From a candidate division WOR-3 bacterium (GTDB taxonomy: Bacteria; Hydrothermota; Tepidihabitantia; Tepidihabitantales; Tepidihabitantaceae): a stretch of 59,466 bases of DNA. Positions 11,613 through 59,466 of the stretch are shown here, piece after piece. Every line of letters starts with the position of its first letter. Positions within the stretch are counted from its first letter, which is position 1. Position numbers and translations under genes: made by a program. The stretch spans positions 1 through 59,466 of the forward strand of contig JAPLUO010000197.1 of NCBI GenBank assembly GCA_026397595.1. Direction: 5' to 3'. Below the pieces are notes generated by a model, which did no database searches, was not told the origin of the DNA, and worked only from the letters and a program-made list of their open reading frames with translations.

Positions 11613-12821
11613 ATGCGAATCGGAGTTGATGCAGTTGCCCTTGATGCGCCCGGGGCAGGCGTGTCGCGCTACGTGCTTGAAGTATTGACGGGCATGATGG
11701 CCAGCTCTCCAGGCGATGATTTCGTGCTGTACTCATGGCGACCGGTCCATATGCCTGTCGTTGGCGGAAACTGGCGCACGCATGTCGCCCGCGCGGGACG
11801 CTGTTCCGCACCGGGAAGTTGGCTAAGGGATACTCTTCCCAGAATGGCTGCAGAGGACGACATCGACGTGTTCTGGGGACAAAACACGGTGATGCCTCTC
11901 CGGTTGATTCGCCCCTGTCGCAGGGTCCTGACCGTTCACGACGTTACCGGATTTGTCGTTCCCCGCACGATGGAGTTCGCAGGCCGCTTGTACTGGAACC
12001 TTGATTTCCGGGCTGCGATCAGGTCTGCTGATGCTATCATAGCGGTTTCGCGCGCGACGGCTCGCCTGCTCCGCAGGCTGCTCGGGGTTCCACCCGACCG
12101 GGTGACGGTGATCTACGAAGGCTGCTCGCTCCGTCTGGCAGCGGGTACGCCATCAAAGGTCGATGGAGATGTCGTGTCGCGGCTCGGTGTCCCAAGTGAG
12201 TTCATGCTGACAGTTGGAACGCTGGAACCGCGCAAGGACCATGCTACCTTGCTGGAGGCGATTAGGCAAAGGAGTGGTTTTCCACCTTTGATGGTTGCGG
12301 GCGCAGTCGGCTGGAACAGCCGCGGCATTCTCAGTCTTGTACGTGAAGCGGAGCGTGACGGCCGCGCGCGGTACCTGGGGCGGGTGAGCGACGAGGATTT
12401 GGCGTCTCTCTATCGTGCTGCACGGATCATGATCTACCCTTCGCTTTACGAAGGTTTTGGTCTTCCCGTTCTGGAGGCGATGGCCTGCGGATGTCCGGTC
12501 CTCTGCAGTTGGTCATCCAGCATGCCTGAGGTCGGCGGAAGGGCGGCCTGCTACTTCCGGTCGAGGGACGCACTTGGCCTAGCAGACAAGCTGCAGGAAC
12601 TACTGCGAGACGACAGTCGCTTGGCCGAGATGAAAGCCAAGGGAATCGAGCAGGCAGCGAAGTTCAGCTTCAGCAGCGCGGCAAAGCAGACGCTCGGCGT
12701 TCTGCACGGTTCGACGCAGGCGCACCAGCCCGTCGAGCGACGGCGCTGTATGTCAGCGCGCCCAGCCGGGCAAAGCGGGAGGCAAAGTGATCACGGACAA
12801 TCAGTCACGCCAGTCCGGTAG
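11613..12821 (+). CDS. glycosyltransferase family 4 (GT-B)
   Basis: MRIGVDAV... N-terminus and YPSLYEGFGLPVLEAMACGCPVLCS (E-x7-E motif). Confidence 0.85.
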   Translation: MRIGVDAVALDAPGAGVSRYVLEVLTGMMASSPGDDFVLYSWRPVHMPVVGGNWRTHVARAGRCSAPGSWLRDTLPRMAAEDDIDVFWGQNTVMPLRLIRPCRRVLTVHDVTGFVVPRTMEFAGRLYWNLDFRAAIRSADAIIAVSRATARLLRRLLGVPPDRVTVIYEGCSLRLAAGTPSKVDGDVVSRLGVPSEFMLTVGTLEPRKDHATLLEAIRQRSGFPPLMVAGAVGWNSRGILSLVREAERDGRARYLGRVSDEDLASLYRAARIMIYPSLYEGFGLPVLEAMACGCPVLCSWSSSMPEVGGRAACYFRSRDALGLADKLQELLRDDSRLAEMKAKGIEQAAKFSFSSAAKQTLGVLHGSTQAHQPVERRRCMSARPAGQSGRQSDHGQSVTPVR

Positions 12822-14538: not shown

Positions 14539-15672
14539 ATGCGCATCGGGGTGGATGCGGTACCTTTTGCGTTTGAGCGCACTGGGGTTGCACGCTACCT
14601 GGGCAGCGTGCTGGACGAGATGCTGGCTGTCGATCCCGCTTCCGAGTTCCTGCTATACACGCCCATTCCAGTATCAGTTCCTCTCCGTAGCGGCAACTGG
14701 CAATTGCGCTTGGTACCTGACCGGCTCGCTCTGCGTCCGAGCGTTTGGGTGCAGACGACGCTGCCCGGTTTGCTGGCATCCGACAAGGTTGATGCGTTCT
14801 GGGGGCAGCCGACGAACCTACCTCTCCGGCCGAAACACAAGTGCTTCCAGATGTTGACGGTCCACGACCTAGTGCCCTATGTTGTACCAGATAGCATGCG
14901 TTTCCGCTCCTGGCTCCGCATGCGGATCATGCTGGGCCTGACGGCCAGGGCAGCCGACGCCGTCATTGCCGACTCGTGGGCTACCGCGGCTCTGGCACGT
15001 CGTTATCTTGGCATTGATATGGAACGGCTGCACGTTGTGCACGCGGCGGCACAAGGTATGTTTCGGCCAGTGCCAAGGGATCAGGCCCGAGCAGCACTCA
15101 TGGATGAGTTTGGTTTACCTCGGAGTTACATTCTGTTCGTGAGCACAATCGAACCGAGGAAGGACCATCTGACGCTGCTGCGCGCCATAGCGAGGGTGCC
15201 GCATGCGCCTCTTCTCGTCTTGGCCGGGGGGGTTGGTTGGCGGTGTAACTCAATCCTCAGGGAGATCAGAGTCGCTGAGGATGCCGGGCGAGTCAAGTAC
15301 GTCGGCAGAGTGGATGACGATTGGCTTCCGGCACTGTACAGCGCGGCCACCATTTCGGTCTACCCTTCGGTGTACGAGGGATTCGGGCTACCGGTGCTCG
15401 AGGCCATGTCCTGCGGGTGCCCGGTACTTTGCAGCGACTCATCCAGTCTCCCGGAGGTCGGCGGTGATGCGGCTTGCTACTTCAGAACTGGCGATAGCGA
15501 AGACCTGGCTCGCAGGCTGACGGAGTTGCTTGACGACGGCGATCGTCTCGATGCCATGTCGGCTGCGGGCTTGAATCAAGCGAATCGGTTCAGTTTTCGG
15601 ACCGCCGCTGAGGAGATCTTGGGGATTATCAGGCGAGGCGTAGCCCCGTCGAGACGAGGCCCGGGCCGGTGA
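14539..15672 (+). CDS. glycosyltransferase family 4 (GT-B)
   Basis: MRIGVDAV... N-terminus and YPSVYEGFGLPVLEAMSCGCPVLCS. Close paralog of 11613..12821. Confidence 0.85.
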   Translation: MRIGVDAVPFAFERTGVARYLGSVLDEMLAVDPASEFLLYTPIPVSVPLRSGNWQLRLVPDRLALRPSVWVQTTLPGLLASDKVDAFWGQPTNLPLRPKHKCFQMLTVHDLVPYVVPDSMRFRSWLRMRIMLGLTARAADAVIADSWATAALARRYLGIDMERLHVVHAAAQGMFRPVPRDQARAALMDEFGLPRSYILFVSTIEPRKDHLTLLRAIARVPHAPLLVLAGGVGWRCNSILREIRVAEDAGRVKYVGRVDDDWLPALYSAATISVYPSVYEGFGLPVLEAMSCGCPVLCSDSSSLPEVGGDAACYFRTGDSEDLARRLTELLDDGDRLDAMSAAGLNQANRFSFRTAAEEILGIIRRGVAPSRRGPGR

Positions 15673-19296: not shown

Positions 19297-19548
19297 ATGG
19301 CCAATGCTTCCGAGCGTTCTGACTCCAGGGCGGGATTCTATATCAGTCCTCGGAGTGGTGGGCGGCTTTCTTTCTGGATTCCCGTGCTGCTTTTCACCTT
19401 GGTGTTGCTGGTTCACGGCCTTAGCCCTGTCTCGCAGTCGTGCGATTCCATGTGGTCGGTCCTTCTGGGTCTCAGCACGATGCGAGAGGGCTACGACGAC
19501 TTCGACGAGTGCCGCGACGCCGTTATGGGAACTGGAAGCGCATCTTGA
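19297..19548 (+). pseudogene. duplicated 5' fragment of the 20981..22405 membrane-protein gene
   Basis: ...RLSFWIPVLLFTLVLLVHGLSPVSQSCDSMWSVLLGLSTMREGYDDFDECRDAV parallels residues of the full gene. About 80% nt identity over about 164 nt (19351-19514 vs 21087-21250) by eye alignment. It ends prematurely. Confidence 0.65.
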
Positions 19549-20980: not shown

Positions 20981-22405
20981 GTGCATAATGCGGTCATGTT
21001 CAGTGCCCCGCAGAGGTCCCCGGTGAGCCGGGCAACCGCACGTTCGAATCTTGGAGTGGGAACTCAAGTCCTACCTCGGACTGCTCGGTGGCTTCCTTTC
21101 TGGATTCCTGTGTCGCTGTTCATTCTGGTGCTGTTGGTTCATGGTTTCAGCCGGGTTTCGCAGTCGACCGATTCCATGTGGTCGGTCCATCTGGGCCTCA
21201 GCATAATGCGAGAGGGCGACACTGACCTCGACGAGTACCGTGACGCTGTTCTGAATGGACCTCGGTATGTATATGAGATAATCAACGGTCACATCTACAG
21301 CAGCTACCCGATCGGTACGCCTCTACTGGTTGCTCCGATAGTATATCTGATTGACCTCGGCATCCGATGGCTCCCCCAGCATTCTCCCGGTCCTGAGAGT
21401 TCCCTCACCGTGCCACGCTCTGAGCAAGGTGGGCGGGTGGGTGCTCTTGCGTTTCCCTGGGCAGTAGAGAGACTTATCGCATCGCTGTTGGTCGCACTGA
21501 CGGCCGTCGTCATGTACTTCGTCGGACGGCAGTTCCTGAACCGATGGCTCTCACTTCTATTGGCTTGCGTGTTTGCGTTCTGCACGCCGGCGTGGTCAAC
21601 AGCCAGCAGGGCGCTGTGGCAGCACGGTCCATCGATGCTGATGCTGGCAGCCGCCCTCCTCATCCTGCTTAAAGCCCACAAGAGGCCGTTCTTGGCGCAG
21701 TTTGCCAGCCTTCCCCTGGCGTATTCCTTCGTCATTCGTCCCACAAACGCGCTCTCAATCATCGCTTTGACTATCTACGTTGCCATCCGCTATCGGAGAT
21801 ACCTGCTGCGCTACCTTGCATGGAGTTTGGTGGTTGTCGTGCCGTTTGTGTGGTACGACTTGTGGCTCTATCATTCGATTCTGCCGACTTACTTTGCCCC
21901 CAGCAAAGTAGGCGCGGTTGCCCACTTGTTTGAAGGTCTAGCTGGGACCTTGGTCAGTCCGTCACGCGGTCTCTTTGTGTACTCTCCAGTGTTTCTCTTC
22001 TCGATTTGTGGCGTGGTCCTGAACCTGAAGAAAGGTAAGGACAGGTTGTTCGATCTGCTGTTGGTGGCGGTCGCAACGGCGCATTGGCTCGTTATCTCGA
22101 GTTTCCCTGACTGGTACGGCGGCCATAGTTTCGGGCCACGCTATTTTGCCGACATGGTGCCCTATCTGGTTTACTTCTTGGTCCCGGTGCTGACCTGGTT
22201 CGCGGAGGCGCGCGGCGTTCTCCGAGGTTGTGTCATGGCGGTCTTTCTGTTGCTCGTGCTAGCGAGTTTCCTCATCAATCTCAACGGGGCGGTGAACAGA
22301 GCCACGCAGCTCTGGAATGTCAATCCTGTCAACGTTGACGAAGCACGCGGACGGCTATGGGATTGGGCCGATCCCCAGTTCCTTCGAGGTATCACGAGAG
22401 AGTAA
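20981..22405 (+). CDS. polytopic membrane protein, GT-C/ArnT-like candidate
   Basis: 474-aa ORF with many TM helices. The likely real start is ATG 20996, which lies 6 nt after a CATAAT box at 20984-20989. Confidence 0.55.
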   Translation: MHNAVMFSAPQRSPVSRATARSNLGVGTQVLPRTARWLPFWIPVSLFILVLLVHGFSRVSQSTDSMWSVHLGLSIMREGDTDLDEYRDAVLNGPRYVYEIINGHIYSSYPIGTPLLVAPIVYLIDLGIRWLPQHSPGPESSLTVPRSEQGGRVGALAFPWAVERLIASLLVALTAVVMYFVGRQFLNRWLSLLLACVFAFCTPAWSTASRALWQHGPSMLMLAAALLILLKAHKRPFLAQFASLPLAYSFVIRPTNALSIIALTIYVAIRYRRYLLRYLAWSLVVVVPFVWYDLWLYHSILPTYFAPSKVGAVAHLFEGLAGTLVSPSRGLFVYSPVFLFSICGVVLNLKKGKDRLFDLLLVAVATAHWLVISSFPDWYGGHSFGPRYFADMVPYLVYFLVPVLTWFAEARGVLRGCVMAVFLLLVLASFLINLNGAVNRATQLWNVNPVNVDEARGRLWDWADPQFLRGITRE

Positions 22406-29539: not shown

Positions 29540-31770
29540 AGCTCGGGCAGCGGCGTGAACTCGACGACCTGATTCGCAGGCTGCGCCTGCACCTCGGGCG
29601 CGGCGGCATCTTCATTCTCGAAGTCAAGGATGACGCGACGCTGACGGTCGTACGCGAGCGCATCCGGGTCGAACTGGGCCATGTCGAATGGCAGGAACTC
29701 GGATTGAGTGACGACCCGATAGCCGAGGCGCTGCGGCTGTTGAGGTCGGGTGCGACACCCGACGCAGTTTTCACCGTGAACCTGCGCGGGCTAGATGAAA
29801 AGCGCGAGAAGCGCACACTCGTCAACCTGAACACCCGACGTGAGTATGTTCCTGAACGGAGTATCCTGCTGCTGCTCTGGTGCCGACCCGGACAGATGTC
29901 CCGCGTGTCCGATATCGCCAAGGACTTCTGGAGTTTCCGGACCGACGTGGGCCGGTTCAGCGTGATGCCGGACCACACTGCCGAGAAGATGCTCGGTCTA
30001 GCCGCAAGGGAGCTAGAGATTGCGGAGGCGCGAGCCCTGCTCGAACGGGTCGAGCGCGACAGTAAAGCCGCTCCATCAGTGCTGCCATCAGTCCATTTCC
30101 GGTTGGGCGACCTGTTGTCCGACGCCGGTCGGCCGGATGAGGCGCTCGATCACTATCTACCCGCGGTAGACGCGTACCGCAGGCTCGACGACAAGCGGAA
30201 CCTTGGCGCGGTCCTCGGCAACATCGGGAACATCTATAGTGCCAAGGGCGAACTCGACAAGGCTCTCAAGTTCCATGACGAGGCGCTGGCAATACACCGC
30301 GAAGGTGGGTATCAGCAGGGCGTGGCGGATGACCTCGGCAACACCGGGAACATCCACAGCGCCAAGGGCGAACCCGACAAGGCGCTCAAGTACTACGAGG
30401 AGGCGCTGGCGACACATCGCGAAATCGGGCATCAACAGAGCGTGGCGAGCGACCTCGGCAACATCGGGAACATCTACAGCAACAAGGGCGAACCCGACAA
30501 GGCGCTCAAGTACTACGAGGAGGCGCTGTCGATACATCGCGAAATTGGGTATCAGCAGGGCGTGGCGGACCAGCTCGGCAACATCGGTAACATCTATAAC
30601 GCCAAGGGTGAGCCCGACAAGGCGCTCAAGTACTACGAGGAAGCGCTGGCCATGGACCGCGAAATTGGGTATCAGCAGGGCGTGGCGAGCGACCTCGGCA
30701 ACATCGCGAACACCTACAGCAACAAGGGTGAAACCGACAAGGCGCTGAAGCACTTAGAGGAGGCGCTGGCCATAAGCCGCGAAATCGGATATCAGCAGGG
30801 CGTGGCGACCCATCTGGGCAACATTGGGCTCATCTACAGCGACAAGGGTGAACCCGACAAGGCGCTGAAGCACTTAGAGGAAGCGCTGGCGATTAACCGC
30901 GGAATTGGGCATCAGCAAGGCGTGGCGATCGACCTCGGCAACATCGGGAACATCTACAGCGACAAGGGCGAACCCGACAAGGCGCTCAAGTACTACGAGG
31001 AAGCGCTGGCGATTGACCGCAAAACTGGGTATCAGCAGGGCGTGGCGACCCAGCTTAGCAACATCGGGCTCATCTACATCGCCAAGGGCGAACCCGACGA
31101 GGCGCTCAAGTACCATGTGGAAGCGCTGGCGATGGCCCGCGAAATCGGGCATCAGCAAGGCGTGGCGGACCAGCTCGGTAGCATCGGGAACATCTACCGC
31201 GCCAAGGGCGAACTCGACCAGGCGCTCAAGCACTACGAGGAAGCGCTGGCGATAGACCGGGAGATCGGGTACCAGCAGGGCGTGGCGAGCTGCCTCGGCA
31301 ACATCGGGCTCATCAACATCGCCAAGGGCGAACCCGACAAGGCGCTCAGGTACCATGAAGAGTCGCTGGCGATTCACCGCGAAATCGGGTACCAGCAGGG
31401 CGTGGCGACCCAACTCGGCAACATCGGGCTCATCTACATCGCCAAGGGCGAACCCGACAAGGCGCTCAAGTACTATGAGGAAGCGCTGGCGATAGACCGG
31501 GAGATCGGGTACCAGCAGGGCGTGGCGACCCAGCTCGGCAACATCGGGCTCGTTTTGACGGACATGGGGAGGCTGGAGCAGGCCGTGCCGAAATTGGTGG
31601 AGGCGTTGGGCGTTTTTCGGGCCATCGGTTTGGCTGACGGCCCCGCGCAGGTGCTGACCGGGTTGGTCCGGTGTGGAGACAAGCTTGGCCGGGCACGGGT
31701 CCAGGAACTGCTCAAGGACGCGGGACTGGATGTCGAGGGCATTGCCAATCTGCTGAAGTTGGTGGACTAG
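29488..31770 (+). CDS. TPR-repeat protein (unassigned ~200-aa N-domain + 12-13 tandem 40-aa TPR units)
   Basis: Repeats of the form LGNIGNIYSxKGEPDKALKYYEEALAIxREIGYQQGVAxx. The start is ATG 29488 (or 29449), which overlaps the ATPase gene by 52 (91) nt. Confidence 0.8.
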   Translation: MAPSEPHLHSLAAKAQLELGQRRELDDLIRRLRLHLGRGGIFILEVKDDATLTVVRERIRVELGHVEWQELGLSDDPIAEALRLLRSGATPDAVFTVNLRGLDEKREKRTLVNLNTRREYVPERSILLLLWCRPGQMSRVSDIAKDFWSFRTDVGRFSVMPDHTAEKMLGLAARELEIAEARALLERVERDSKAAPSVLPSVHFRLGDLLSDAGRPDEALDHYLPAVDAYRRLDDKRNLGAVLGNIGNIYSAKGELDKALKFHDEALAIHREGGYQQGVADDLGNTGNIHSAKGEPDKALKYYEEALATHREIGHQQSVASDLGNIGNIYSNKGEPDKALKYYEEALSIHREIGYQQGVADQLGNIGNIYNAKGEPDKALKYYEEALAMDREIGYQQGVASDLGNIANTYSNKGETDKALKHLEEALAISREIGYQQGVATHLGNIGLIYSDKGEPDKALKHLEEALAINRGIGHQQGVAIDLGNIGNIYSDKGEPDKALKYYEEALAIDRKTGYQQGVATQLSNIGLIYIAKGEPDEALKYHVEALAMAREIGHQQGVADQLGSIGNIYRAKGELDQALKHYEEALAIDREIGYQQGVASCLGNIGLINIAKGEPDKALRYHEESLAIHREIGYQQGVATQLGNIGLIYIAKGEPDKALKYYEEALAIDREIGYQQGVATQLGNIGLVLTDMGRLEQAVPKLVEALGVFRAIGLADGPAQVLTGLVRCGDKLGRARVQELLKDAGLDVEGIANLLKLVD
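30190..31560 (+). repeat. 120-bp tandem coding repeats (TPR units) of high nucleotide identity
   Basis: Twelve consecutive units, each starting GGCAACATCGGG.... They generate antisense and off-frame shadow ORFs. Confidence 0.9.
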
Positions 31771-45871: not shown

Positions 45872-47953
45872 CTATTGCTGCGGGTGTCCCGCGAACATTG
45901 GGTAGAGGCGTTCGCGGGTTGGCTGGTCGACTGCGCTGAAGTGCGAGAACTGCATGGAGTTGGCGGCGCGGCCCTGGGAGAGGGAGCGGAGCTGAGTGGC
46001 GTAGCCGAAGGTCTTGATCAGCGGCAGTTCGGCCTTGATTATCTGGTGGCCTTTGACCGGTTCGAGGTGCAGAATCCTGCCGTCGCGCGATGTGACGTCG
46101 CCGAGCACGCTGCCTAAGTACTGGTCCGGGGTTACGACTTCGAGTTCCATTATCGGCTCCAGGAAGGTCGGGCTCGCGGCTGTGAAGGCCTCGCGGAACG
46201 CCTGGCCCGCCGCGACCTTGAAGTCAACGTCGGAGGAGTCCTGTTCGTGCCACTCGCCGTCGAGGATGCGGGCCTTGACGTTGACGACCGCGTACCCGGC
46301 CAGCACGCCCGATTCGAAGCTGTCTTGGATGGCCTGTTTGATGGCGGCGGCGAACTCGCGCGGTAGTGTTCCGGGCTTGAGTTCATCCTCCACGAGGTTG
46401 CCGTCGGGCGAAGGTTCGAGCGCGAGCTTGACGACCGCGTAGTGTCCCTTGCCGCCACTCTGCCGGATGAATCTGCCTTCGGCGGTCGCGGCCGCGGTGA
46501 CGGTCTCGCGGTAGGAGACCTGCGGCTTGCCGGAGTGGACGCCGACCTTGTAGTCGCGGAGCAGCCGGTCAATCAGGATTTCGAGGTGCAGTTCGCCCAT
46601 GCCGGACAGGATGAGCTGGCCGGTTTCCTCGTCGGTGCGGACCTTGAAGGTCGGGTCCTCGAGCGCGAGCGTGTCGAGCGACGTGTGGAGCTTGTCCTCG
46701 TCCGCCTTGGTCCTCGGCTCAATCGCGAGGAACACGACCGGTTCAGGGTACTTGACCGGCTCGAACGCAATCGGGTGGGCGAGATTGGTCAGGGTCTGCC
46801 CGGTGCGCGGTTCCTTGAGGCCGATGACCACGCCGATTTCCCCGGCGGAGAGCGATTCGACTTCCTGCTGCCGGTTGGCGTGCATGATGGCGAGCTTGGG
46901 AATCCGCACGCGCTTCATCTCCGGCACCGACATCACGACTTCGCCTTCTTCGACCTTGCCCGAGTAGACGCGGACGTAGGCGAGCATGCCGCGCTGCGGG
47001 TCGGAGGCGAGCTTGAAGGTCAGCGCCGAGAACGGCGACTTGGCATCGGACGGCCGGGTCTCATCCTTGCCGGTCTTCGGATTGGTGCCGCGCGCTGGCG
47101 GGACGTCGAGCGGCGACGGCAGGTAGTGGACGATGCCGTCGAGCAGCTTCTGGATGCCCTTGTTCTTGAACGCGCTGCCGCAGAAGACCGGCACGATCTT
47201 GAGGGCGATGGTGCCTGTGCGCAGGGCGTGTTTCAGGTCGGTTTCGCCAATCGGCGAGCCGGCCAGGTACTTCTCCAGTAGTTGTTCGTCGAACGTGGTC
47301 AGCGTGTCAATCATCCGGTGCCGGTAGTCCGCGACCTCGGGCAGTCGGTCTTCGGGAATCGGCATTTCCTCGAAGGTCGCGCCCAGGTCGTCGGTGTGCC
47401 AGACAAAGGCCTTCTCGGCCACGAGGTCAATCAAGCCCTTGTACTCGTCTTCAGCGCCGATGGGCAACTGGACCGGAACCGGCGTCTGCTCGAACTTCTC
47501 GGCCATCATCTTGACCACGCGGTAGAAGTCCGCGCCGTTGCGGTCGAGCTTGTTAACGAACGCAATGCGGGGCACGTGGTAGCGGTCGGCCTGGCGCCAG
47601 ACGGTCTCGGACTGGGGTTCGACCCCGCCGACCCCGCAGAAGACGATTATCGCGCCGTCGAGCACCTTGAGCGAGCGCTCGACCTCGACCGTGAAGTCAA
47701 CGTGGCCGGGCGTGTCGATGATGTTGATGCGGTGCTCCAGCCAGGAGACGGTGGTGGCCGCGGCGGTGATGGTGATGCCGCGCTCGCGTTCCTGCACCAT
47801 CCAGTCCATCTGGGTGTTGCCGTCGTCGATGTCACCCATCCGGTGAATACGGCCCGAGTAATAGAGTATGCGCTCGGTCGTCGTCGTCTTGCCAGCGTCG
47901 ATGTGCGCGGCAATGCCGATATTACGAATCTGCGTCAGGTCGGCGCTTTGCAT
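45872..47953 (-). CDS. fusA: elongation factor G (stand-alone copy, not in an rpsL-rpsG-fusA-tuf context)
   Basis: The start [32 protein letters not shown] is at 47953. It has [12 protein letters not shown] and full EF-G domains. The ORF-track extension to 48244 was rejected. Confidence 0.93.
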
Positions 47954-47960
47954 AGGCGTC

Positions 47961-48044
47961 AATGCTATTGGCTGATAGCTAAGAGTCAAGTCGGGACTGC
48001 CGATTCCCGATTGACAATCGTCAACTGTCGGTCGCCAACTCCCA
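47961..48044. repeat. intergenic heptamer array (12 units) containing promoter hexamers
   Basis: AATGCTA TTGGCTG ATAGCTA AGAGTCA AGTCGGG ACTGCCG ATTCCCG ATTGACA ATCGTCA ACTGTCG GTCGCCA ACTCCCA. Confidence 0.7.
47962..47989 (-). promoter_or_regulatory. sigma70-like promoter (TTGACT-16-TAGCAT), near-leaderless for fusA
   Basis: The -10 ends 8 nt before ATG 47953. Both hexamers lie inside the heptamer array. Confidence 0.45.
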
Positions 48045-48051
48045 GCAGGTG

Positions 48052-48080
48052 TTGCGAACGCGGGTCGAGTCTGATATTCT
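48052..48080 (+). promoter_or_regulatory. sigma70-like promoter (TTGCGA-17-TATTCT), leaderless relative to GTG 48086
   Basis: The -10 ends 5 nt before the GTG. Confidence 0.4.
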
Positions 48081-48085
48081 CTCGC

Positions 48086-49075
48086 GTGTACAGACAGTCC
48101 TCGCCGGGCGACGCGGCCGTGTTTCGCGCGGATGTGAGACGGATATGGGACGAGTTCCAGCGGCTCGATAAGTCGCAGGAGTTCGGGAACCTGGAGGGCG
48201 GGAGCGTGGAGCAGCAGCGGGACCACCGTTTGCAACTCCACCATTGCGCGAACTACGCGGCCGTGCTCGAAGTCCTGAGTCAGACGGGTCAGACGAGTCC
48301 GACCGGTCAGACAAGGTCCCTGCGACTGCTGGAGCTCGGCTGCGGCAGCGGTATGCTGACGAGCGCCCTGGCCCGGGTGATGCCCGAGGGTTGGACAATC
48401 GAGGCGACCGACTACTCGGAGCGACTGCTGGCCGGGGCCCGGTCACGGTTCGAGTGCGCGAATATCAGTTTCCGCCACCTGGACGCGCGGGCCATCGGGC
48501 CGGAGCGGCTGGCGGGGATAGACGCGGTGTTGCTGCTTGAGGTGATTGAGCATCTGCCGCAGGATGAGGCGGCCGGTCTGCTGCGACGGGTGTACGATGC
48601 GCTGCCGCCGGGCGGGTTGACGGTGATGACCACGCTCGACCGGGCCGCGTTCCCGCGCACCTTCTCCGGCTACGCGCCGCACTTCGTTGAGTACACTCAC
48701 CGGTCGCTCTCGCAGTTCCTTAAGGAGGGGCGGCACAGCCCGTTCGAGGCTTGCGACGTGTTCCGGCTCGCGTCCGCGCGCATCGTGTGTGAGGCGGTAC
48801 GGGCCGAGGAGCGCGGCGGTTACCTCCTGAACCGGCTCCGGCGGCTGGAGTTGAGTCTCGAGCGCCGGCACGCTGAGTTCAGCGCGTTTCGGGATTGGCT
48901 GGAATCCCGCCTGTTTCGGCTGTACGCTCTTCTGCCCGAGAACGACGGATTCGATCTTGAAGGCTACTTGAGCACGCTTGAGTTCGTCCGGTCCGCACCT
49001 GAATCGCGCGACCGGGATTCATTCGGGCTTGTCGCAGTCCTGAGGAAGGCCGGCGGGGCGGCCACGATGGAGTAA
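48086..49075 (+). CDS. class I SAM-dependent methyltransferase
   Basis: Motif [13 protein letters not shown] with [12 protein letters not shown]. The GTG 48086 start was chosen from promoter geometry. The part of the ORF upstream of it is antisense to fusA. Confidence 0.65.
48279..48317. repeat. 9-bp tandem repeat in frame in the methyltransferase
   Basis: GTCAGACGG GTCAGACGA GTCCGACCG GTCAGACAA, encoding [12 protein letters not shown] just before motif I. Confidence 0.7.
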
Positions 49076-49157
49076 CGGCATCGAGACGAAGCAGATGAAG
49101 AGACTTGCCGCGCCGCTCGCAATGACGGTGTTCAAGGTGCTGCTGGTGAGGTAGCCC

Positions 49158-50210
49158 GTGCCGGCACGGAAGGACGCAGAGCATCTGCCCGGGTTCCTTT
49201 TCCGGGCGGTATCGTTCGAGCGCGGCCGGCTGCGGATTCTCGACCAGACACAGTTACCGCACCGCGTCACTTACCTCTACCCGACCAAAGCGGCTGACGT
49301 AGTTGCAGTCATCAAACGGCTGGCGGTGCGCGGGGCACCGGCCATCGGCGTGGCCGCCGCGTACGGTATGGCCGTCGAGGCCGGGCGACTGCCTGACCGG
49401 AATCTAAGGAGCGGGCTTGAGCGGGCAGCGCGCATGCTGGTCGCCGCGCGACCGACTGCGGTCAACCTCAAGTGGGCTGTTGTCCGTGTCATGCAGTCCG
49501 TGTCCGTCCGTGCGATGTCGCCCGAGGAGAAGCGCCGGGCCGTGCTCGCTGAGGCTCAGCGGATTGAGACCGAGGAAGTCGAACGCTCGCTCGCGATAGC
49601 GCGACACGGTGCGAAACTGCTTCCCAAGAACGCCGAAGTCCTCACCATCTGCAACACCGGTGCGCTCGCCGCTCCTGGAATGGGCACCGCGCTCGGTGTG
49701 ATATTCCAGGCTCACATTGACGGCAAGCGGCCGCACGTGTATGCCTGCGAGACTAGACCACTGTTGCAGGGTAGCAGACTGACAACGCTCGAACTGCAAC
49801 GGGCTAGGATTCCGGTCACGCTGATTGCCGATAGCGCTGCGGCCAGCGTGATTGACCGGTGCGACGTGATGCTCGTTGGTGCCGACCGCATAGCAGCCAA
49901 CGGCGACACAGCGAACAAGGTCGGGACGCGGATGCTCGCGACACTAGCGCGCGCCGCACGCAAGCCGTTCTACGTTGTCGCGCCGTCCTCGACCTTTGAC
50001 TCCGCAACTCGGACCGGACAGCAGATTGTCGTCGAGCAAAGGGATGGGGAGGAGGTACGGGCCTTCGCCGGGTGCCGTGCCGCGCCGGCCCGGACCGTCG
50101 TATTCAACCCGGCCTTTGACGTAACTCCGGCCCGTCTCATCGCCGGCTTCATCACCGACCGCGGCATCCTCAAGCCGCCGTTCCGCAAGAACGTCAGCTC
50201 CAACCCCTGA
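49158..50210 (+). CDS. mtnA: S-methyl-5-thioribose-1-phosphate isomerase
   Basis: FERGRLRILDQTQLP, RGAPAIGVAAAYG, GADRIAANGDTANKVGT and FDVTPARLIAGFITDRG motifs. Confidence 0.88.
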   Translation: MPARKDAEHLPGFLFRAVSFERGRLRILDQTQLPHRVTYLYPTKAADVVAVIKRLAVRGAPAIGVAAAYGMAVEAGRLPDRNLRSGLERAARMLVAARPTAVNLKWAVVRVMQSVSVRAMSPEEKRRAVLAEAQRIETEEVERSLAIARHGAKLLPKNAEVLTICNTGALAAPGMGTALGVIFQAHIDGKRPHVYACETRPLLQGSRLTTLELQRARIPVTLIADSAAASVIDRCDVMLVGADRIAANGDTANKVGTRMLATLARAARKPFYVVAPSSTFDSATRTGQQIVVEQRDGEEVRAFAGCRAAPARTVVFNPAFDVTPARLIAGFITDRGILKPPFRKNVSSNP

Positions 50211-50479
50211 CTTCGGTCTCGCGTCCTGACCTGCGATGCGTCCAAGTCTGACTGCCGACATCCCATAGGAGAGCCCGTCAAGCCTGCGCAGCGTGGCTGC
50301 GACCTGTGATACGGCAACCGAGGCACCCGGGCGCATCAAGCTCTGACATCGCCTGCCCTCTCTGCCGTCCGAGGACGCGAGCTGGGCGGCGATGGTGTGG
50401 CATCTCGTATTCCCGTGGGTCGCGCGACATCGAGAGGAGGCGCGAAGCGCTTGACGATCGGCTGGAGTCGGTTGCCCAT

Positions 50480-50507
50480 TTGACACGCCGCCCGCGAGCG
50501 CTAGAAT
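50480..50507 (+). promoter_or_regulatory. sigma70-like promoter (TTGACA-16-TAGAAT), leaderless relative to ATG 50514
   Basis: The -10 ends 6 nt before the ATG. Confidence 0.55.
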
Positions 50508-50513
50508 CGGGGC

Positions 50514-51575
50514 ATGGTCAGGTCGTCCGAACCCAAGGCCACCTTGACAGACGCTAGTACTAGGCCGGCGTCATCGAGAGCCCCGATCGGAGATGCTCGA
50601 GGTAGCACTTGTGCTCTAGAGCTGCAGGTCCGTAGATACGCGTTCGTACCGCTTCTGATCTGTATGGTCCTGCGCACTGCGGGGGGCTCGCTGATAGACG
50701 AGAACAGCATCTCGCCCCAGGCTGACTCGATGCTGTCCGATACTGTGTTCACGCATCCAAACCCGTTAATGTGGGGGAGCATCCGACCGCCCAAGGGCTG
50801 GCAGACGTGGTCCTACAGCGACTACACCATGGAGCTGTCCGCACCGGGGGGCGCGAAACTCCGGATCACACGCTTGCCTATGGGTAGCTGCGATGTCGGC
50901 CAACCGCTGTCGATGCGCCGCCAGGTGGCAGAGCGGTTACGGAGGCGCTTTCCCGGGACCGTGGTCACCGTGGAGTCAACCACCGCCTTCGGCAAACCCG
51001 CGACTGCTCTGCATCTGGTTTTGCCGAGCGGAGATGTCCGCGACCAGATCAGGTATGCGGATCGGTCCGACCTGGTGACAATCGAGTACCGCGCGGACAG
51101 CTCGAACTACCACCGCCTGCTCCCGCTGGTGAAGGTCAGCCTGCTAACGCTCAACTGCGGCCGTGCGGTTCAGCGTGTGAGGTTGGCCCGTATGTACTTG
51201 GCGATGGGATGCAGCACCTGGGCGGCGGCTGAAGTCGCTCAGGGCCTACGCGATGCCCCCAGCGACAGCGAACTGCAGCAACTTGCGCGCGCCTCAAATC
51301 GGATTGACACGACTGCCACGCAGGGCGACCGCGTACCTGATAGAAGACGACCACCACTAGAGAACCTGGTGAGTGGGGTGATCGATGCGCTCATCGCACC
51401 GCTGCGCCAGTTGACGGTTTCCTGTGATCGATCGCGACGGTATGAACCCACCCAGATGCTGGGGCAGCGTTGGTCAACTCGAGGTTTCTGGTACCGCTGT
51501 GGTGTAGTGATGGGCTTCGCTCTTATTCTGCTCATCGTTGGCGGATGGGGTGTGTATCGGAGGAACCGGCGATGA
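50514..51575 (+). CDS. hypothetical protein with C-terminal TM anchor
   Basis: 353-aa ORF with its own promoter and a C-terminal helix (VVMGFALILLIVGGWGVY). No family recognised. Confidence 0.5.
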   Translation: MVRSSEPKATLTDASTRPASSRAPIGDARGSTCALELQVRRYAFVPLLICMVLRTAGGSLIDENSISPQADSMLSDTVFTHPNPLMWGSIRPPKGWQTWSYSDYTMELSAPGGAKLRITRLPMGSCDVGQPLSMRRQVAERLRRRFPGTVVTVESTTAFGKPATALHLVLPSGDVRDQIRYADRSDLVTIEYRADSSNYHRLLPLVKVSLLTLNCGRAVQRVRLARMYLAMGCSTWAAAEVAQGLRDAPSDSELQQLARASNRIDTTATQGDRVPDRRRPPLENLVSGVIDALIAPLRQLTVSCDRSRRYEPTQMLGQRWSTRGFWYRCGVVMGFALILLIVGGWGVYRRNRR

Positions 51576-51614
51576 CCATCACTGCCGGCTGCCCGCCATC
51601 GGTGCCAGCGGGGG

Positions 51615-51920
51615 GTGCAAGTCGGGACGTGGATGCTCGCGACACTCGCGCGGGCGGCACACAAGCCGTTCTACGTGGTGGCGCCGTCCTCGACCTTTGA
51701 CCTCGCGACCCGGACCGGACGGCAGATTGCGGTCGAGGAAAGGAATGGGGAAGAGGTTAGGGCATTCGCCGGCTGCCGCGCCGCGCCGGCCCCGACCGTC
51801 GTATTCAACCCGGCCTTTGACGTTACTCCGGCCCGCCTCATCACCGGCTTCATCACCGACCGCGGCATCCTCACGTCGCCGTTCCGCCAGAGCATCGCTC
51901 GGCTGTTGGCACGCGCCTAG
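51615..51920 (+). pseudogene. mtnA: duplicated 3' fragment of mtnA
   Basis: TRMLATLARAA.KPFYVVAPSSTFD...FNPAFDVTPARLI.GFITDRGIL is shared with mtnA. There are 29 mismatches and no gaps in about 270 nt aligned by eye (49920-50189 vs 51621-51890). Confidence 0.8.
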
Positions 51921-51930
51921 CGGCGGGGCA

Positions 51931-51969
51931 ACAGAAAAGACGCGGCCCGGGCAGGAATGCCCGGGCCGT
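51931..51969 (-). terminator. intrinsic (possibly bidirectional) terminator
   Basis: An 11-12 bp perfect GC stem, GCGGCCCGGGCA-ggaa-TGCCCGGGCCG. It is flanked by an A-run on the plus strand, which is a T-run for the minus-strand cyclophilin operon. Confidence 0.7.
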
Positions 51970-51985
51970 GATGATTGTCGTCAGG

Positions 51986-52693
51986 CTAGTCGGTGGTGAC
52001 GAAGACCTGTTCCATGACAACCGGTGTGAGCGGCTTGTCCGTGGGAGCGCCCGCGGTCTTCACCGTTGCGAGTTTGTCCAGCACGTCCATACCTTCCTTG
52101 AGCTGGCCGATGACCGTGTACTGGCCGTCAAGCTGGGGTGTGGGTTGGAAGCAGATGTAGAATTGGCTGCCGGATGAGCGTCTCTCCGGGTTGACATTGT
52201 CCCCGGTGCGCGCCATCGCCATCGAGCCTTTGTCGTGACGGCGCTTGATTTCCGCGGGCACGGTGTAGCCCGGCCCGCCGGTTCCGTTGCCGGACGGGTC
52301 GCCGCCCTGGATCATGAAGCCCGGGATGAGTCGGTGGAATACCAGGCCGTTGTAGAACCCCTTGATGCCGAGGTTCGCGACGTTGGTGACGTTCAAGGGC
52401 GCGTCTTTGGTGTAGAACTGGATCTTCATCGTCCCGTAGTCCTTGACCTTGATGGTCAGGTACAGGTTCTCGGGAAGTTTGGTTGCGACGAGCGTGTCTT
52501 TAAGCATACCTTTTGCCGCCGGGGGCGGGGTTACGGACTTGGCTGCAGTTGTGTCGGCCGGCGCGGCCGGCTTGATTGTGTCGGCGGCCAAGGCGGGCGG
52601 CTCAGCCGGCGGCTTGGCCACGGGCTGAGTCGGCTTGGGCGTACCGCAGCCGACAACGAGCAGCACGACCAGTATTGTCAGAAGCCACTTCAT
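51986..52693 (-). CDS. cyclophilin-type peptidyl-prolyl isomerase, lipoprotein
   Basis: Lipobox VVGCG, a Pro/Ala-rich linker, and FHRLIPGFMIQGGDPSGNGTGGPGY. Confidence 0.88.
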   Translation of the reverse strand: MKWLLTILVVLLVVGCGTPKPTQPVAKPPAEPPALAADTIKPAAPADTTAAKSVTPPPAAKGMLKDTLVATKLPENLYLTIKVKDYGTMKIQFYTKDAPLNVTNVANLGIKGFYNGLVFHRLIPGFMIQGGDPSGNGTGGPGYTVPAEIKRRHDKGSMAMARTGDNVNPERRSSGSQFYICFQPTPQLDGQYTVIGQLKEGMDVLDKLATVKTAGAPTDKPLTPVVMEQVFVTTD

Positions 52694-57350: not shown

Positions 57351-59466
57351 ATGGCGAAAGCGACGCCTGCGTTTGAGCCCTACAGCCTGCAGCCGGTAAC
57401 CGGCGACGACCTCATCGGTCGGGATGCCGACAAGCAGGAGCTCCAGCGCCTGCTATCCGGCAGGGCCAAGGTCATCATCCTGACCGGCGAGCGCGGCATC
57501 GGCAAGACCTCGCTCCTGATGACCATTCCGTCCCTGGTCGAGAACATGGAGTGGATTCCGCAGTACAATGCGGCCACTGGCGGCGAGTTCTGGGAGACGC
57601 TTGGCGCCCAGCTTGCCGGTCTGCTTCATGCTGCAAAGAGGCTGGGTACATGGCGGTTCGATGGCCTTATCCCCATAGCGGATTTACTCGGGTTGCCGCC
57701 TGTGCCGTCATTGCCGGCGAAGCTATTCACCATTGAGCGTACCGGCGCAGCGGAGCCGGACTTCACCCGATTCCTCAAGGTCTGCGCCAAACTGAAGACA
57801 CGGCGCAAGCCCGTCTGTATCCGCGTCGAGAGCGCGCACCTCATGAAACCGACTGACCACGTCTGGCTGATGGAGTTGTGCCGGGAGTCCGGGAACCTAT
57901 TTGTCATCCTCGAAGCTCCCAGCAACGAACTGGACAAGCTAGATGGTTCGGTACGCAAGGCGGCGTCAGAGCTTCCTCTCGGGCGCCTCTCCGAGAAGGC
58001 TGCCCGCGAACTCGTGCAACGCGGCAAGTTCTTGGAGGACGGCGCGGTCAAGCGCATCGTCAAACTGGGTGAGGGTAGTCCATACTACCTGCAGAACGTC
58101 TGCTGGGTTCTCTGGCAGCGTCACAACTCGGGGCGGTCGGACGAAATCCCTCACATCATCGAGCATCTCGACGCGAGGGACCTGACCGACAAGCTGAAGG
58201 TCGTGCACGGCGAGGTTGTTGGAAGTCTGGGGCGGCCTGCAGCTCAACTGGCTCAGGACCTTGCCATCGTGCCGGCGGCGTTTACCGATGCAATCGCGCG
58301 ACAGTTCACGGGGCTGAAGGCTAAGGACTACGCCGGGGCGCTGCAAGAACTGCTCGACCGCTGCATCGCAGTACAAGAGGGTGAGACGATGCACCTGTAC
58401 CATGGCCGGTTCCGCGAACACCTGCGTGACGTCCAGCACCTGACTGCCGCGGAGGTCGGCAAGCGCTACCTGAAGGCGGCAAGAGCGCTGACCGCGGACC
58501 CGCCGGTTGAACTCGTCCTGCTCGAAGTCTACGACGACGCGCCGCTGCTCAACGAACTCGTTCGAGTCGTGACTCACCCGAATGCGCTGAGCAAACTGGC
58601 GTCCCGTCTCTATGTCAACGGTAGGACGGCCGAGGCACTGGCGACGTGGCAGCGGTTGCTGGACCTCGCCGGAACCGACAAGGTCTGGCGCTCCGCCGCC
58701 CTCGGCAACATCGGGCTCATCTTCAGCGACAAGGGCGAACCCAACAAGGCGCTCAAGTACCTAGAAGAAGCGCTGGCGATACTCCGTGAAATCGGGCATC
58801 AGCAGGGCGTGGCGAGCGCCCTTGGCAATATCGGGAACATCTTCAGCGACAAGGGCGAATCCGACAAGGCGCTCAAGCATCTCGAGGAAGCACTGGCGAT
58901 AGACCGGGAAATCGGGTATCAGCAGGGCGTGGCTGCCCATCTCGGCGACATCGGGCTCATCTTCATCGGCAAGGGCGAATCCGACAAGGCGCTCAAGTAT
59001 TTCGAGGAAGCACTGGCGATAGACCGTGAGATCGGGTATCAACTGGGCGTGGCGAACCATCTCGGCAACATCGGGAGCATCTACATCGGCAAGGGCGAAC
59101 CCGACACGGCGCTCAAGTACCTTGAGGAGGCGCTGGCGATACACCGTGAAATCGGGTATCAGCAGGGCGTGGCGAACGGCCTCGGCAACGTCGGCCGCAT
59201 CTACATCGACAAGGGCGAGCCCGACAAGGCGCTTAGGTACTTGGAGGAAGCGCTGGCGATAGGCCGCGAAATCGGACACCAGCAGGGCGTGGCGAACGGC
59301 CTCGGCGACATCGGGACCATCTACCGCGACAAAGGCGAACCCGACAAGGCGCTCAAGTACTTGGAGGAAGCGCTGGCGATAGACCGGGAAACCGGGCATC
59401 AGCAGGGCGTGGCGGCCCATCTCGGCGACATCGGGCTCATCTACCGCGACAAGGGCGAACTCGACA
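57351..59466 (+). CDS. STAND-like P-loop ATPase (Arch_ATPase/Orc-like) fused to a TPR array; 3' end beyond the window
   Basis: I translated this manually; it is absent from the ORF track because it has no stop in the window. It reads MAKATPAFEPYSLQPVTGDDLIGRDADKQELQRLLSGRAKVIILTGERGIGKTSLLM..., then GEGSPYYLQNV, and from about 58690 at least seven 40-aa TPR units. Confidence 0.8.
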   Translation, partial: MAKATPAFEPYSLQPVTGDDLIGRDADKQELQRLLSGRAKVIILTGERGIGKTSLLMTIPSLVENMEWIPQYNAATGGEFWETLGAQLAGLLHAAKRLGTWRFDGLIPIADLLGLPPVPSLPAKLFTIERTGAAEPDFTRFLKVCAKLKTRRKPVCIRVESAHLMKPTDHVWLMELCRESGNLFVILEAPSNELDKLDGSVRKAASELPLGRLSEKAARELVQRGKFLEDGAVKRIVKLGEGSPYYLQNVCWVLWQRHNSGRSDEIPHIIEHLDARDLTDKLKVVHGEVVGSLGRPAAQLAQDLAIVPAAFTDAIARQFTGLKAKDYAGALQELLDRCIAVQEGETMHLYHGRFREHLRDVQHLTAAEVGKRYLKAARALTADPPVELVLLEVYDDAPLLNELVRVVTHPNALSKLASRLYVNGRTAEALATWQRLLDLAGTDKVWRSAALGNIGLIFSDKGEPNKALKYLEEALAILREIGHQQGVASALGNIGNIFSDKGESDKALKHLEEALAIDREIGYQQGVAAHLGDIGLIFIGKGESDKALKYFEEALAIDREIGYQLGVANHLGNIGSIYIGKGEPDTALKYLEEALAIHREIGYQQGVANGLGNVGRIYIDKGEPDKALRYLEEALAIGREIGHQQGVANGLGDIGTIYRDKGEPDKALKYLEEALAIDRETGHQQGVAAHLGDIGLIYRDKGELD
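58690..59466 (+). repeat. 120-bp tandem coding repeats (TPR units), highly similar at nucleotide level to 30190..31560
   Basis: For example GGCGAACCCGACAAGGCGCTCAAGTAC...GAGGAAGCGCTGGCGAT recurs in both arrays. Confidence 0.85.

Follow-up and report, generated by a model that had tools for sequence, protein, structure and literature searches.

A 1.7-kb insertion within mtnA of a candidate division WOR-3 bacterium that leaves the gene intact through a surrogate 3' end

In Campbell-type integration, as in insertion-duplication with suicide plasmids, a gene is followed by the inserted DNA and then by a repeated piece of the same gene, and the repeat is exactly the homologous segment. Homology-facilitated illegitimate recombination (HFIR) and double illegitimate recombination have been described for natural transformation of Acinetobacter baylyi and Streptococcus pneumoniae: foreign DNA with one homologous anchor, or with none, is joined at microhomologies of 3-8 nt, and no recombinase gene takes part. 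Events of the HFIR type usually delete recipient DNA and do not duplicate it. A further precedent is given by integrase-mediated islands and prophages, many of which insert in the 3' ends of tRNA or protein genes, with the replacement end carried in attP. A literature search on duplication-insertion events and on island-borne gene ends returned nothing directly usable. The DNA described here is a contig window of 59,466 nt from a candidate division WOR-3 bacterium; all coordinates are positions in this window. Within it, the gene mtnA, encoding S-methyl-5-thioribose-1-phosphate isomerase (MtnA), carries an addition. Alignment with relatives shows that 1701 bp have been added inside mtnA at codon 254/255, that a surrogate end keeps the gene intact, and that the native end has been displaced by 1.7 kb. 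The structure resembles an insertion of the Campbell or HFIR type as well as the gene-end replacement of islands, and it fails the tests for an integrase element, a transposon and a tandem duplication.

The basis of the structure is a direct repeat of 276 nt. Its two copies (S1 upstream, S2 downstream; Table 1) align without gaps at a spacing of 1701 nt and differ by 31 mismatches (88.8% identity), and the edges of the repeat are sharp at either side in the MAFFT alignment. When the whole window was compared with itself by BLAST, this pair was found at E = 1e-99 and was the sole dispersed repeat of such kind. An earlier sequence-only reading of this DNA had given an extent of about 270 nt with 29 mismatches; the ungapped repeat stands, whereas its size and mismatch count are replaced by the present values, the repeat being 6 nt longer. 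The added block corresponds to 49920-51620, that is, S1 together with the 1425 bp of lineage-specific DNA between the copies (X), in which the only gene is an open reading frame (ORF) of 353 codons, ORF353. S1 continues the frame of mtnA and provides the gene with a new end, so that mtnA stays intact. The protein in use matches PF01008 over the full length of the family (2-280/280) and scores 387.1 bits against the TIGR00512 equivalog (cutoff 279), with residues 16-339 covered. In the protein search it was 80-87% identical in amino acids to relatives from candidate division WOR-3, several of which are named WOR-3. It ends in ..PPFRKNVSSNP, which is novel from nt 50196 onward in the protein alignment, and the DNA alignment breaks at the same place.

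Close relatives were gathered by a protein search together with the contigs encoding the matches, and 177 loci were fetched (individual loci carry L numbers). MtnA of the relatives ends in ..PP[FY]RKSIxRLLxR. In the protein alignment the downstream copy ends ..SPFRQSIARLLARA; the native tail (SIARLLARA) is found only on S2, and the tail of S1 is novel. S2 is open in the mtnA frame, with 0 indels and 0 stops, in agreement with the earlier description of a second copy with an open frame, a different tail and its own stop. An uninterrupted target site, which the sequence-only reading had proposed to look for, is present in L172 and L179: the mtnA stop is followed by the GC-rich hairpin and the convergent cyclophilin gene, with nothing between. 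Three more contigs encoding the L172 mtnA protein have the same gene order, gene order being the only feature compared. The stretch 51621-52060 of the window (S2, tail, hairpin and cyclophilin 3' end) is colinear in alignment with L172, from its mtnA 3' end into the DNA beyond, and the L179 sequence past the mtnA stop codon is nearly the same. By these alignments the downstream fragment is the original mtnA end in its ancestral place, and the S1 end a replacement. The polarity implied by the earlier reading is thus reversed: the copy with native tail, stop and terminator is the original one, and the copy inside the intact gene is the replacement. S2 with its native tail is now a non-functional relic. 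As a side observation, the position of the mtnA stop codon in L172 (L172:4170-5264) reads TGG, not TAG, so that the protein called there (364 aa) runs through the terminator hairpin to the cyclophilin gene.

Table 1. Features of the mtnA locus, in window coordinates
Feature	Position	Strand	Remarks
mtnA, S-methyl-5-thioribose-1-phosphate isomerase, 350 aa	49158..50210	+	Codons 1-254, then S1, then novel tail
Repeat copy S1	49920..50195	+	mtnA codons 255-346; copy in current use
Novel C-terminal tail (..V)SSNP + TGA	50196..50210	+	Homology to S2 and all relatives ends here
Lineage-specific DNA X, 1425 bp	50196..51620	+	Between the copies; spacer of ~300 bp, promoter-like site, ORF353
Sigma-70-like promoter TTGACA-16-TAGAAT	50480..50507	+	Pattern match; 11/12 positions
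ORF353, cargo gene, 353 aa	50514..51575	+	Sole gene between the repeat copies
Repeat copy S2	51621..51896	+	Displaced native mtnA codons 255-346
Native mtnA tail (..I)ARLLARA + TAG	51897..51920	+	Fits relatives' consensus SIxRLLxR; TAG = 51918-51920
GC-rich hairpin, 11 bp stem	51943..51968		Between native mtnA end and convergent cyclophilin gene; kept in empty-site relatives
Cyclophilin-type peptidyl-prolyl isomerase (PPIase) lipoprotein gene	51986..52693	-	PF00160; ancestral convergent neighbour of mtnA

Two trivial origins were considered, and both together are very improbable: the contig might be a chimeric assembly of two strains, or S2 might be what is left of a second mtnA paralogue of independent origin. 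The first would suit a metagenomic contig, the more so as related strains co-occur in the same samples as short divergent contigs. The region 49800-52000, however, is complete in five public runs (three samples, two studies; freshwater or lake metagenomes), and the separately assembled contigs of runs X1, X2 and X4, again from three samples and two studies, run through the two junctions without a single difference; these contigs cover 49549-52600 or beyond at a depth of 8-15x. A peat metagenome contains an identical 200-nt piece of ORF353 at low depth. Since the assemblies of independent runs are identical, the structure is not an artefact of one assembly, as the earlier reading had claimed on other grounds. 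No pop-out joint skipping the 1701 bp was seen in the assembled contigs, which drop rare variants. The second origin, a decayed paralogue unrelated to the intervening gene, had been named by the sequence-only reading as the scenario that would overturn it. It is excluded by the colinearity of S2 with the gene end, hairpin and PPIase gene of L172 and L179, which identifies S2 as the native end.

The block shows none of the usual marks of a mobile element. Pfam and PHROG scans of all ORFs and frames in 50196-51620 gave no recombinase or transposase, and the earlier statement that neither is visible is borne out. No defence protein was found in X, and X has no match in Pfam, PHROG, NCBIfam or PADLOC. 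Terminal inverted repeats are absent at 50196/51620, and an Rfam scan of 48-53 kb returned one sub-threshold chance match only. Blastn and tblastn searches of X against the 177 loci matched nothing except the window itself, and no plasmid, phage or viral relatives of X or ORF353 were found in the collections searched. The flanks of X are syntenic host genes. A transposon or insertion sequence does not fit: transposase and terminal inverted repeats are both lacking, and 276 bp were duplicated, where a short target-site duplication would be expected. A simple tandem duplication fails as well, as X is present once and S2 leads into the native tail, not into X.

The geometry itself is nevertheless the classical one of an island or prophage, in which the end borne by the element restores the target gene and the native end remains on the far side as a diverged direct repeat. 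It might be imagined that an integrase-mediated element targeting the 3' part of mtnA has decayed, having lost its integrase and the greater part of its cargo by internal deletion. The sharp start of homology at the left edge, the place where an attachment-site (att) core is expected, would suit this origin. We regard it as improbable. Only 1425 bp lie between the repeats, their sole ORF is PsbP-like, and no frame holds a recombinase remnant. An identical att core at both ends was not found: the left edge shares 9 nt before the first mismatch, and the longest identical runs between S1 and S2 (30 nt) are internal, although an old event could have eroded the core. In addition, none of the 177 loci has a related element, or a second piece of mtnA, at the mtnA site, and viral or plasmid relatives are lacking among the sequences searched. 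Anywhere in these loci, a second mtnA piece is absent save for one weak match in a distant locus. This means that the duplication is specific to the present lineage.

The comparison with Campbell-type integration is closer. The inserted DNA has a piece of its target gene on either side as a direct repeat, relatives with an empty site exist, and mtnA remains functional because the fragment reaches almost to the gene end. The differences are the lack of plasmid or vector functions, the 11% divergence of the copies and the lack of a recognisable crossover point; moreover, the fragment is without the last 8 codons, a novel tail is supplied, and a circular donor is hypothetical. With HFIR the locus shares the absence of a recombinase gene and a 4-nt microhomology, with a 1-nt offset, at each novel junction: CAAG at 49916-49919/51617-51620 and GCTC after 50195/51896. 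This is a post hoc observation. It differs from HFIR in that a duplication was produced, and 276 bp is at the long end of reported sizes.

We consider integration of DNA from a related strain, anchored by homology and Campbell-like or HFIR-like, to have about an even chance of being the correct explanation. The ancestral mtnA ended in ..SIxRLLxR and a stop, followed by the hairpin and then by the converging cyclophilin gene. The added block consists of S1 with the tail NVSSNP, a spacer of ~300 bp with the promoter, and ORF353. Most likely it came in through recombination anchored in mtnA homology, the DNA being that of a related WOR-3 strain, and two routes can be envisaged: one crossing-over with a fragment that had been circularised (Campbell-type), or homologous pairing at one side only, with the other side joined at a microhomology (HFIR-like). 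In both cases S1 would have diverged from S2 before arrival, and no dedicated recombinase would take part.

The main competing explanation is a duplication-insertion in situ: a break or template switch in mtnA would have captured 1425 bp and duplicated 276 bp of the host's own gene by illegitimate, microhomology-mediated repair. The copies would have been identical at first and would then have diverged by 11%, with S1 under selection and S2 drifting. We hold this to be possible and rather doubtful. The two explanations make different statements about the age of the S1-S2 divergence, and the evidence from substitutions bears on both. Between S1 and S2, the synonymous divergence (dS) was 0.254 and the nonsynonymous divergence (dN) 0.078, giving an omega (dN/dS) of 0.31. 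The nucleotide identity of the copies, 88.8%, was in effect no higher than that of either copy to the orthologues of L084 and L085 (88.0-88.5%). In the neighbour-joining tree S1 and S2 were sisters, as in-situ duplication predicts, but with a bootstrap of only 0.29 for all sites and 0.21 for third positions.

The differences between S1 and S2 were polarised with six outgroups. On the S2 branch 18 derived changes were found (10 nonsynonymous and 8 synonymous), compared with 12 on the S1 branch (5 nonsynonymous and 7 synonymous). The nonsynonymous share on S2 is below the neutral expectation (P = 0.08). After an event in situ, a dead fragment of 300 nt would have gathered about 0.13 substitutions per neutral site, so that ~25 nonsynonymous changes are expected in it, and an indel or a stop is probable; S2 shows the 10 changes mentioned, no indel or stop, and an undiminished MtnA profile score. 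A hypothetical gene composed of the mtnA 5' part, S2 and the native tail scored 389.3 bits against TIGR00512, compared with the 387.1 bits of the real gene. With its frame free of indels and stops and its score undiminished, S2 looks as if selection had acted on it for a large part of the time in which S1 and S2 diverged, and had been relaxed during only some of it. Furthermore, the in-situ event would have to date back roughly to the separation from L081, the nearest syntenic relative. It had been stated before that ~10% divergence shows the event to be old. This does not follow, the divergence being as deep as that between sampled species; with this depth and an S2 that scores like a live copy, much of the divergence may predate the event. 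Taken together, these data favour, and do not prove, the view that S1 was already diverged, that is, foreign, at its arrival.

Several observations weigh against a foreign S1 integrated by homology. Nominally, no pair with S1 or S2 in it had a smaller dS than the two copies themselves, the next values being 0.30-0.40; this is what duplication in situ predicts. A dS of 0.25 is also within the divergence of the flanking genes from L081 (0.15-0.31), which is without the event. The derived changes of S2 outnumber those of S1 and are more radical and unique: four replacements found only in S2 (R->W, V->A, R->P and P->S) are at otherwise invariant columns, and the omega of the S2 branch, ~0.43, is above that of the orthologues (P = 0.017 versus an omega of 0.15). 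The unique replacements and the raised omega imply that S2 has been unconstrained for some time. The microhomologies at both junctions suit in-situ repair too. No crossover point is visible in the polarised S1/S2 differences, which interleave, and a homologous crossover would be inefficient at 11% divergence with identical runs of 30 nt at most. Finally, a donor was not found: no relative examined has an mtnA ending in NVSSNP, and no collection searched contained a close homologue of ORF353 or X. The sequence-only reading had offered Campbell-type integration or a duplication-insertion event as the origin of an insertion of one gene between two copies of an mtnA piece. The insertion of one gene between such copies is upheld; of the two origins, integration anchored by homology stands at even chance, and duplication in situ is a tentative second.

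The cargo had been described before as a 353-aa gene between the copies with its own promoter, and both the ORF and the promoter-like site were found again at the same place (Table 1). The site is the only sigma-70-like match in 5 kb, where 0.7 is expected by chance, and it ends 6 nt before the ATG of ORF353. An N-terminal export signal requires the long 353-aa start, which adjoins the promoter-like site; a leaderless ORF353 mRNA would fit this arrangement. Coding periodicity, judged from GC content by codon position, is clear across 50660-51260 and weaker in the first 50 and last 100 codons, and the GC content at third codon positions (0.80) is like that of the neighbouring genes. Among 5.8 billion proteins there was no close homologue. 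An exhaustive phmmer search of 1.84 billion representatives gave four remote relatives (P0122-P0125), 27-33% identical over residues 60-259, so that the family amounts to five sequence clusters only among these representatives. The relatives are of ~248 aa and start with signal peptides or carry a lipobox; one of them also has ankyrin repeats fused to it. A profile search with the family alignment found nothing further, nor did searches with P0122 in genome contigs and with ORF353 in viral contigs, and no Pfam or NCBIfam family was matched. The sequence-only reading had suggested looking whether homologues of the cargo always have host-gene duplications beside them. L173, the sole homologue with genomic context, has no such duplication or other repeat at its sides and is not near mtnA.

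By hydropathy, ORF353 has a signal-anchor-like segment (residues 42-62) and, close to its C-terminus, a transmembrane helix (323-350) with YRRNRR after it. The predicted layout is a signal-anchor, a PsbP/Mog1/DcrB-like domain (residues ~70-210), helices similar to tetratricopeptide repeats (TPR), and the C-terminal transmembrane helix. In the AlphaFold (AF2) model, built on an alignment of 5 sequences only, the core has a predicted local distance difference test (pLDDT) score of 70-90. In Foldseek this core matched PsbP, CyanoP, Mog1p, DcrB, LpqN, EagT6 and Tsi3 with E of about 1e-6 (1.7e-6 for the set PsbP, CyanoP, DcrB, LpqN and EagT6) and probability 1.0, the target-normalised template modelling (TM) score being 0.5-0.66. 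The likeness to these proteins is in the alpha-beta-alpha sandwich of residues ~70-210. DcrB and LpqN resemble ORF353 in addition by export and membrane tethering, which are predicted for ORF353 too. In contrast to proteins of the PsbP/DcrB fold, ORF353 has the extra TPR-like helices and the C-terminal membrane anchor and belongs to no Pfam or NCBIfam family. From the model and the hydropathy, ORF353 is predicted to be an exported, membrane-tethered binding module with a PsbP/DcrB-like fold.

One further feature of the cargo concerns its frame. The mtnA gene (49158), ORF353 (50514) and S2 (51621) share one reading frame, the spacing of 1701 being 3 x 567. The TGA of ORF353 (51573-51575) is followed by 15 in-frame sense codons and then by S2, and without that single TGA, ORF353 and the MtnA C-terminal fragment would be read as one fused protein. 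The common frame is probably a coincidence.

The surroundings of the insertion vary strongly among relatives. The closest syntenic contigs, L081-L083, have 87-92% nucleotide identity to the window from EF-G (elongation factor G) through the methyltransferase gene and mtnA to 50198. The synteny of L081 returns at 51987, at the stop of the cyclophilin gene. In the gap thus defined (50199-51986), L081-L083 do not match the window and have, on the other strand, a gene for a DUF2330 membrane protein of 467 aa. In nearly all relatives the gene content on the 3' side of mtnA is different: L084 has ORFs of 811 and 104 aa ahead of the cyclophilin gene, L169 has ORFs of 859 and 788 aa, L085 and L177 have glycosyltransferases, L176 has a helix-turn-helix protein, and L174 and L178 have other ORFs. 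The gene mtnA itself is irregular: the dS between the window and L081 was 0.70 for the mtnA 5' part and 0.50 for the repeat segment, compared with 0.15-0.31 for the EF-G, methyltransferase, cyclophilin and M14 peptidase genes. Sliding-window identity to six relatives showed a mosaic throughout mtnA and nothing special at 49920 that would mark a recombination breakpoint there; a patch of ~250 nt (49408-49657) is 88-93% identical to L168 and L169. By these comparisons mtnA is a recombination mosaic, and its 3' flank is a hotspot of recombination and gene flux in this WOR-3 clade. This speaks for the entry of the block by recombination anchored in mtnA.

Two side observations concern the same gene. 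First, the near-identical mtnA alleles of L168 (P0003) and L169 (P0005) differ by a compact patch, AAPARTVVF versus ASPKGVPVF. The patch corresponds to about 50080-50110 of the window, inside the duplicated segment, and each type recurs across the clade. These patch types suggest short recombination tracts in the duplicated segment. Second, between the methyltransferase gene and mtnA, L084, L085 and L172 have a response-regulator gene and a gene for a secreted protein of ~855 aa, whose Pfam marks are weak and vary by contig (Por_Secre_tail in some, Peptidase_C25 in one, none in others). L168 has only the response regulator ahead of mtnA, and the window (49076-49157) and L081 have an 82-bp spacer alone. 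The content thus varies by relative, which makes the upstream flank of mtnA indel-variable too.

Elsewhere in the window, the EF-G ORF (45872-48244, minus strand) is open for 790 codons from its first ATG, compared with 692-695 aa for EF-G of relatives; the extra ~95 N-terminal codons are probably not translated. The self-BLAST also showed other short diverged direct repeats with 77-80% identity, 19348-19527 versus 21074-21253 and 12433-12557 versus 15359-15483, which are probably paralogous domains. Two arrays of diverged 120-nt tandem repeats are present at 30204-31551 and 58697-59466, the latter continuing past the end of the window. Their units are ~80-85% identical and the arrays are interrelated; presumably they encode 40-residue repeats of large surface proteins.

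It is tempting to ascribe a function to the 276-nt piece. It might be a landing pad, with recombinase-free cassettes of accessory genes, each bringing a surrogate end for a housekeeping gene, being exchanged among WOR-3 strains. If so, cassettes would integrate by the homologous recombination of the host without killing the target, the mtnA 3' flank would be a dedicated hotspot of gene exchange, and the retained S2 would allow a precise pop-out. We think this unlikely. The locus is a clear but fairly ordinary footprint of recombinational gene gain and not a new mechanism. Its value is that of an example from an uncultured phylum, in which an orphan accessory gene has entered a housekeeping gene inside its coding sequence and left that gene intact, and in which the ancestral state and the scar are both kept; the family of the cargo, predicted exported proteins of the PsbP/DcrB fold, is very rare. 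S2 provides a datable relic for the timing of gene gain. If the replacement end is derived from a donor, the locus would represent homology-anchored gene gain between diverged environmental strains without the machinery of a mobile element.

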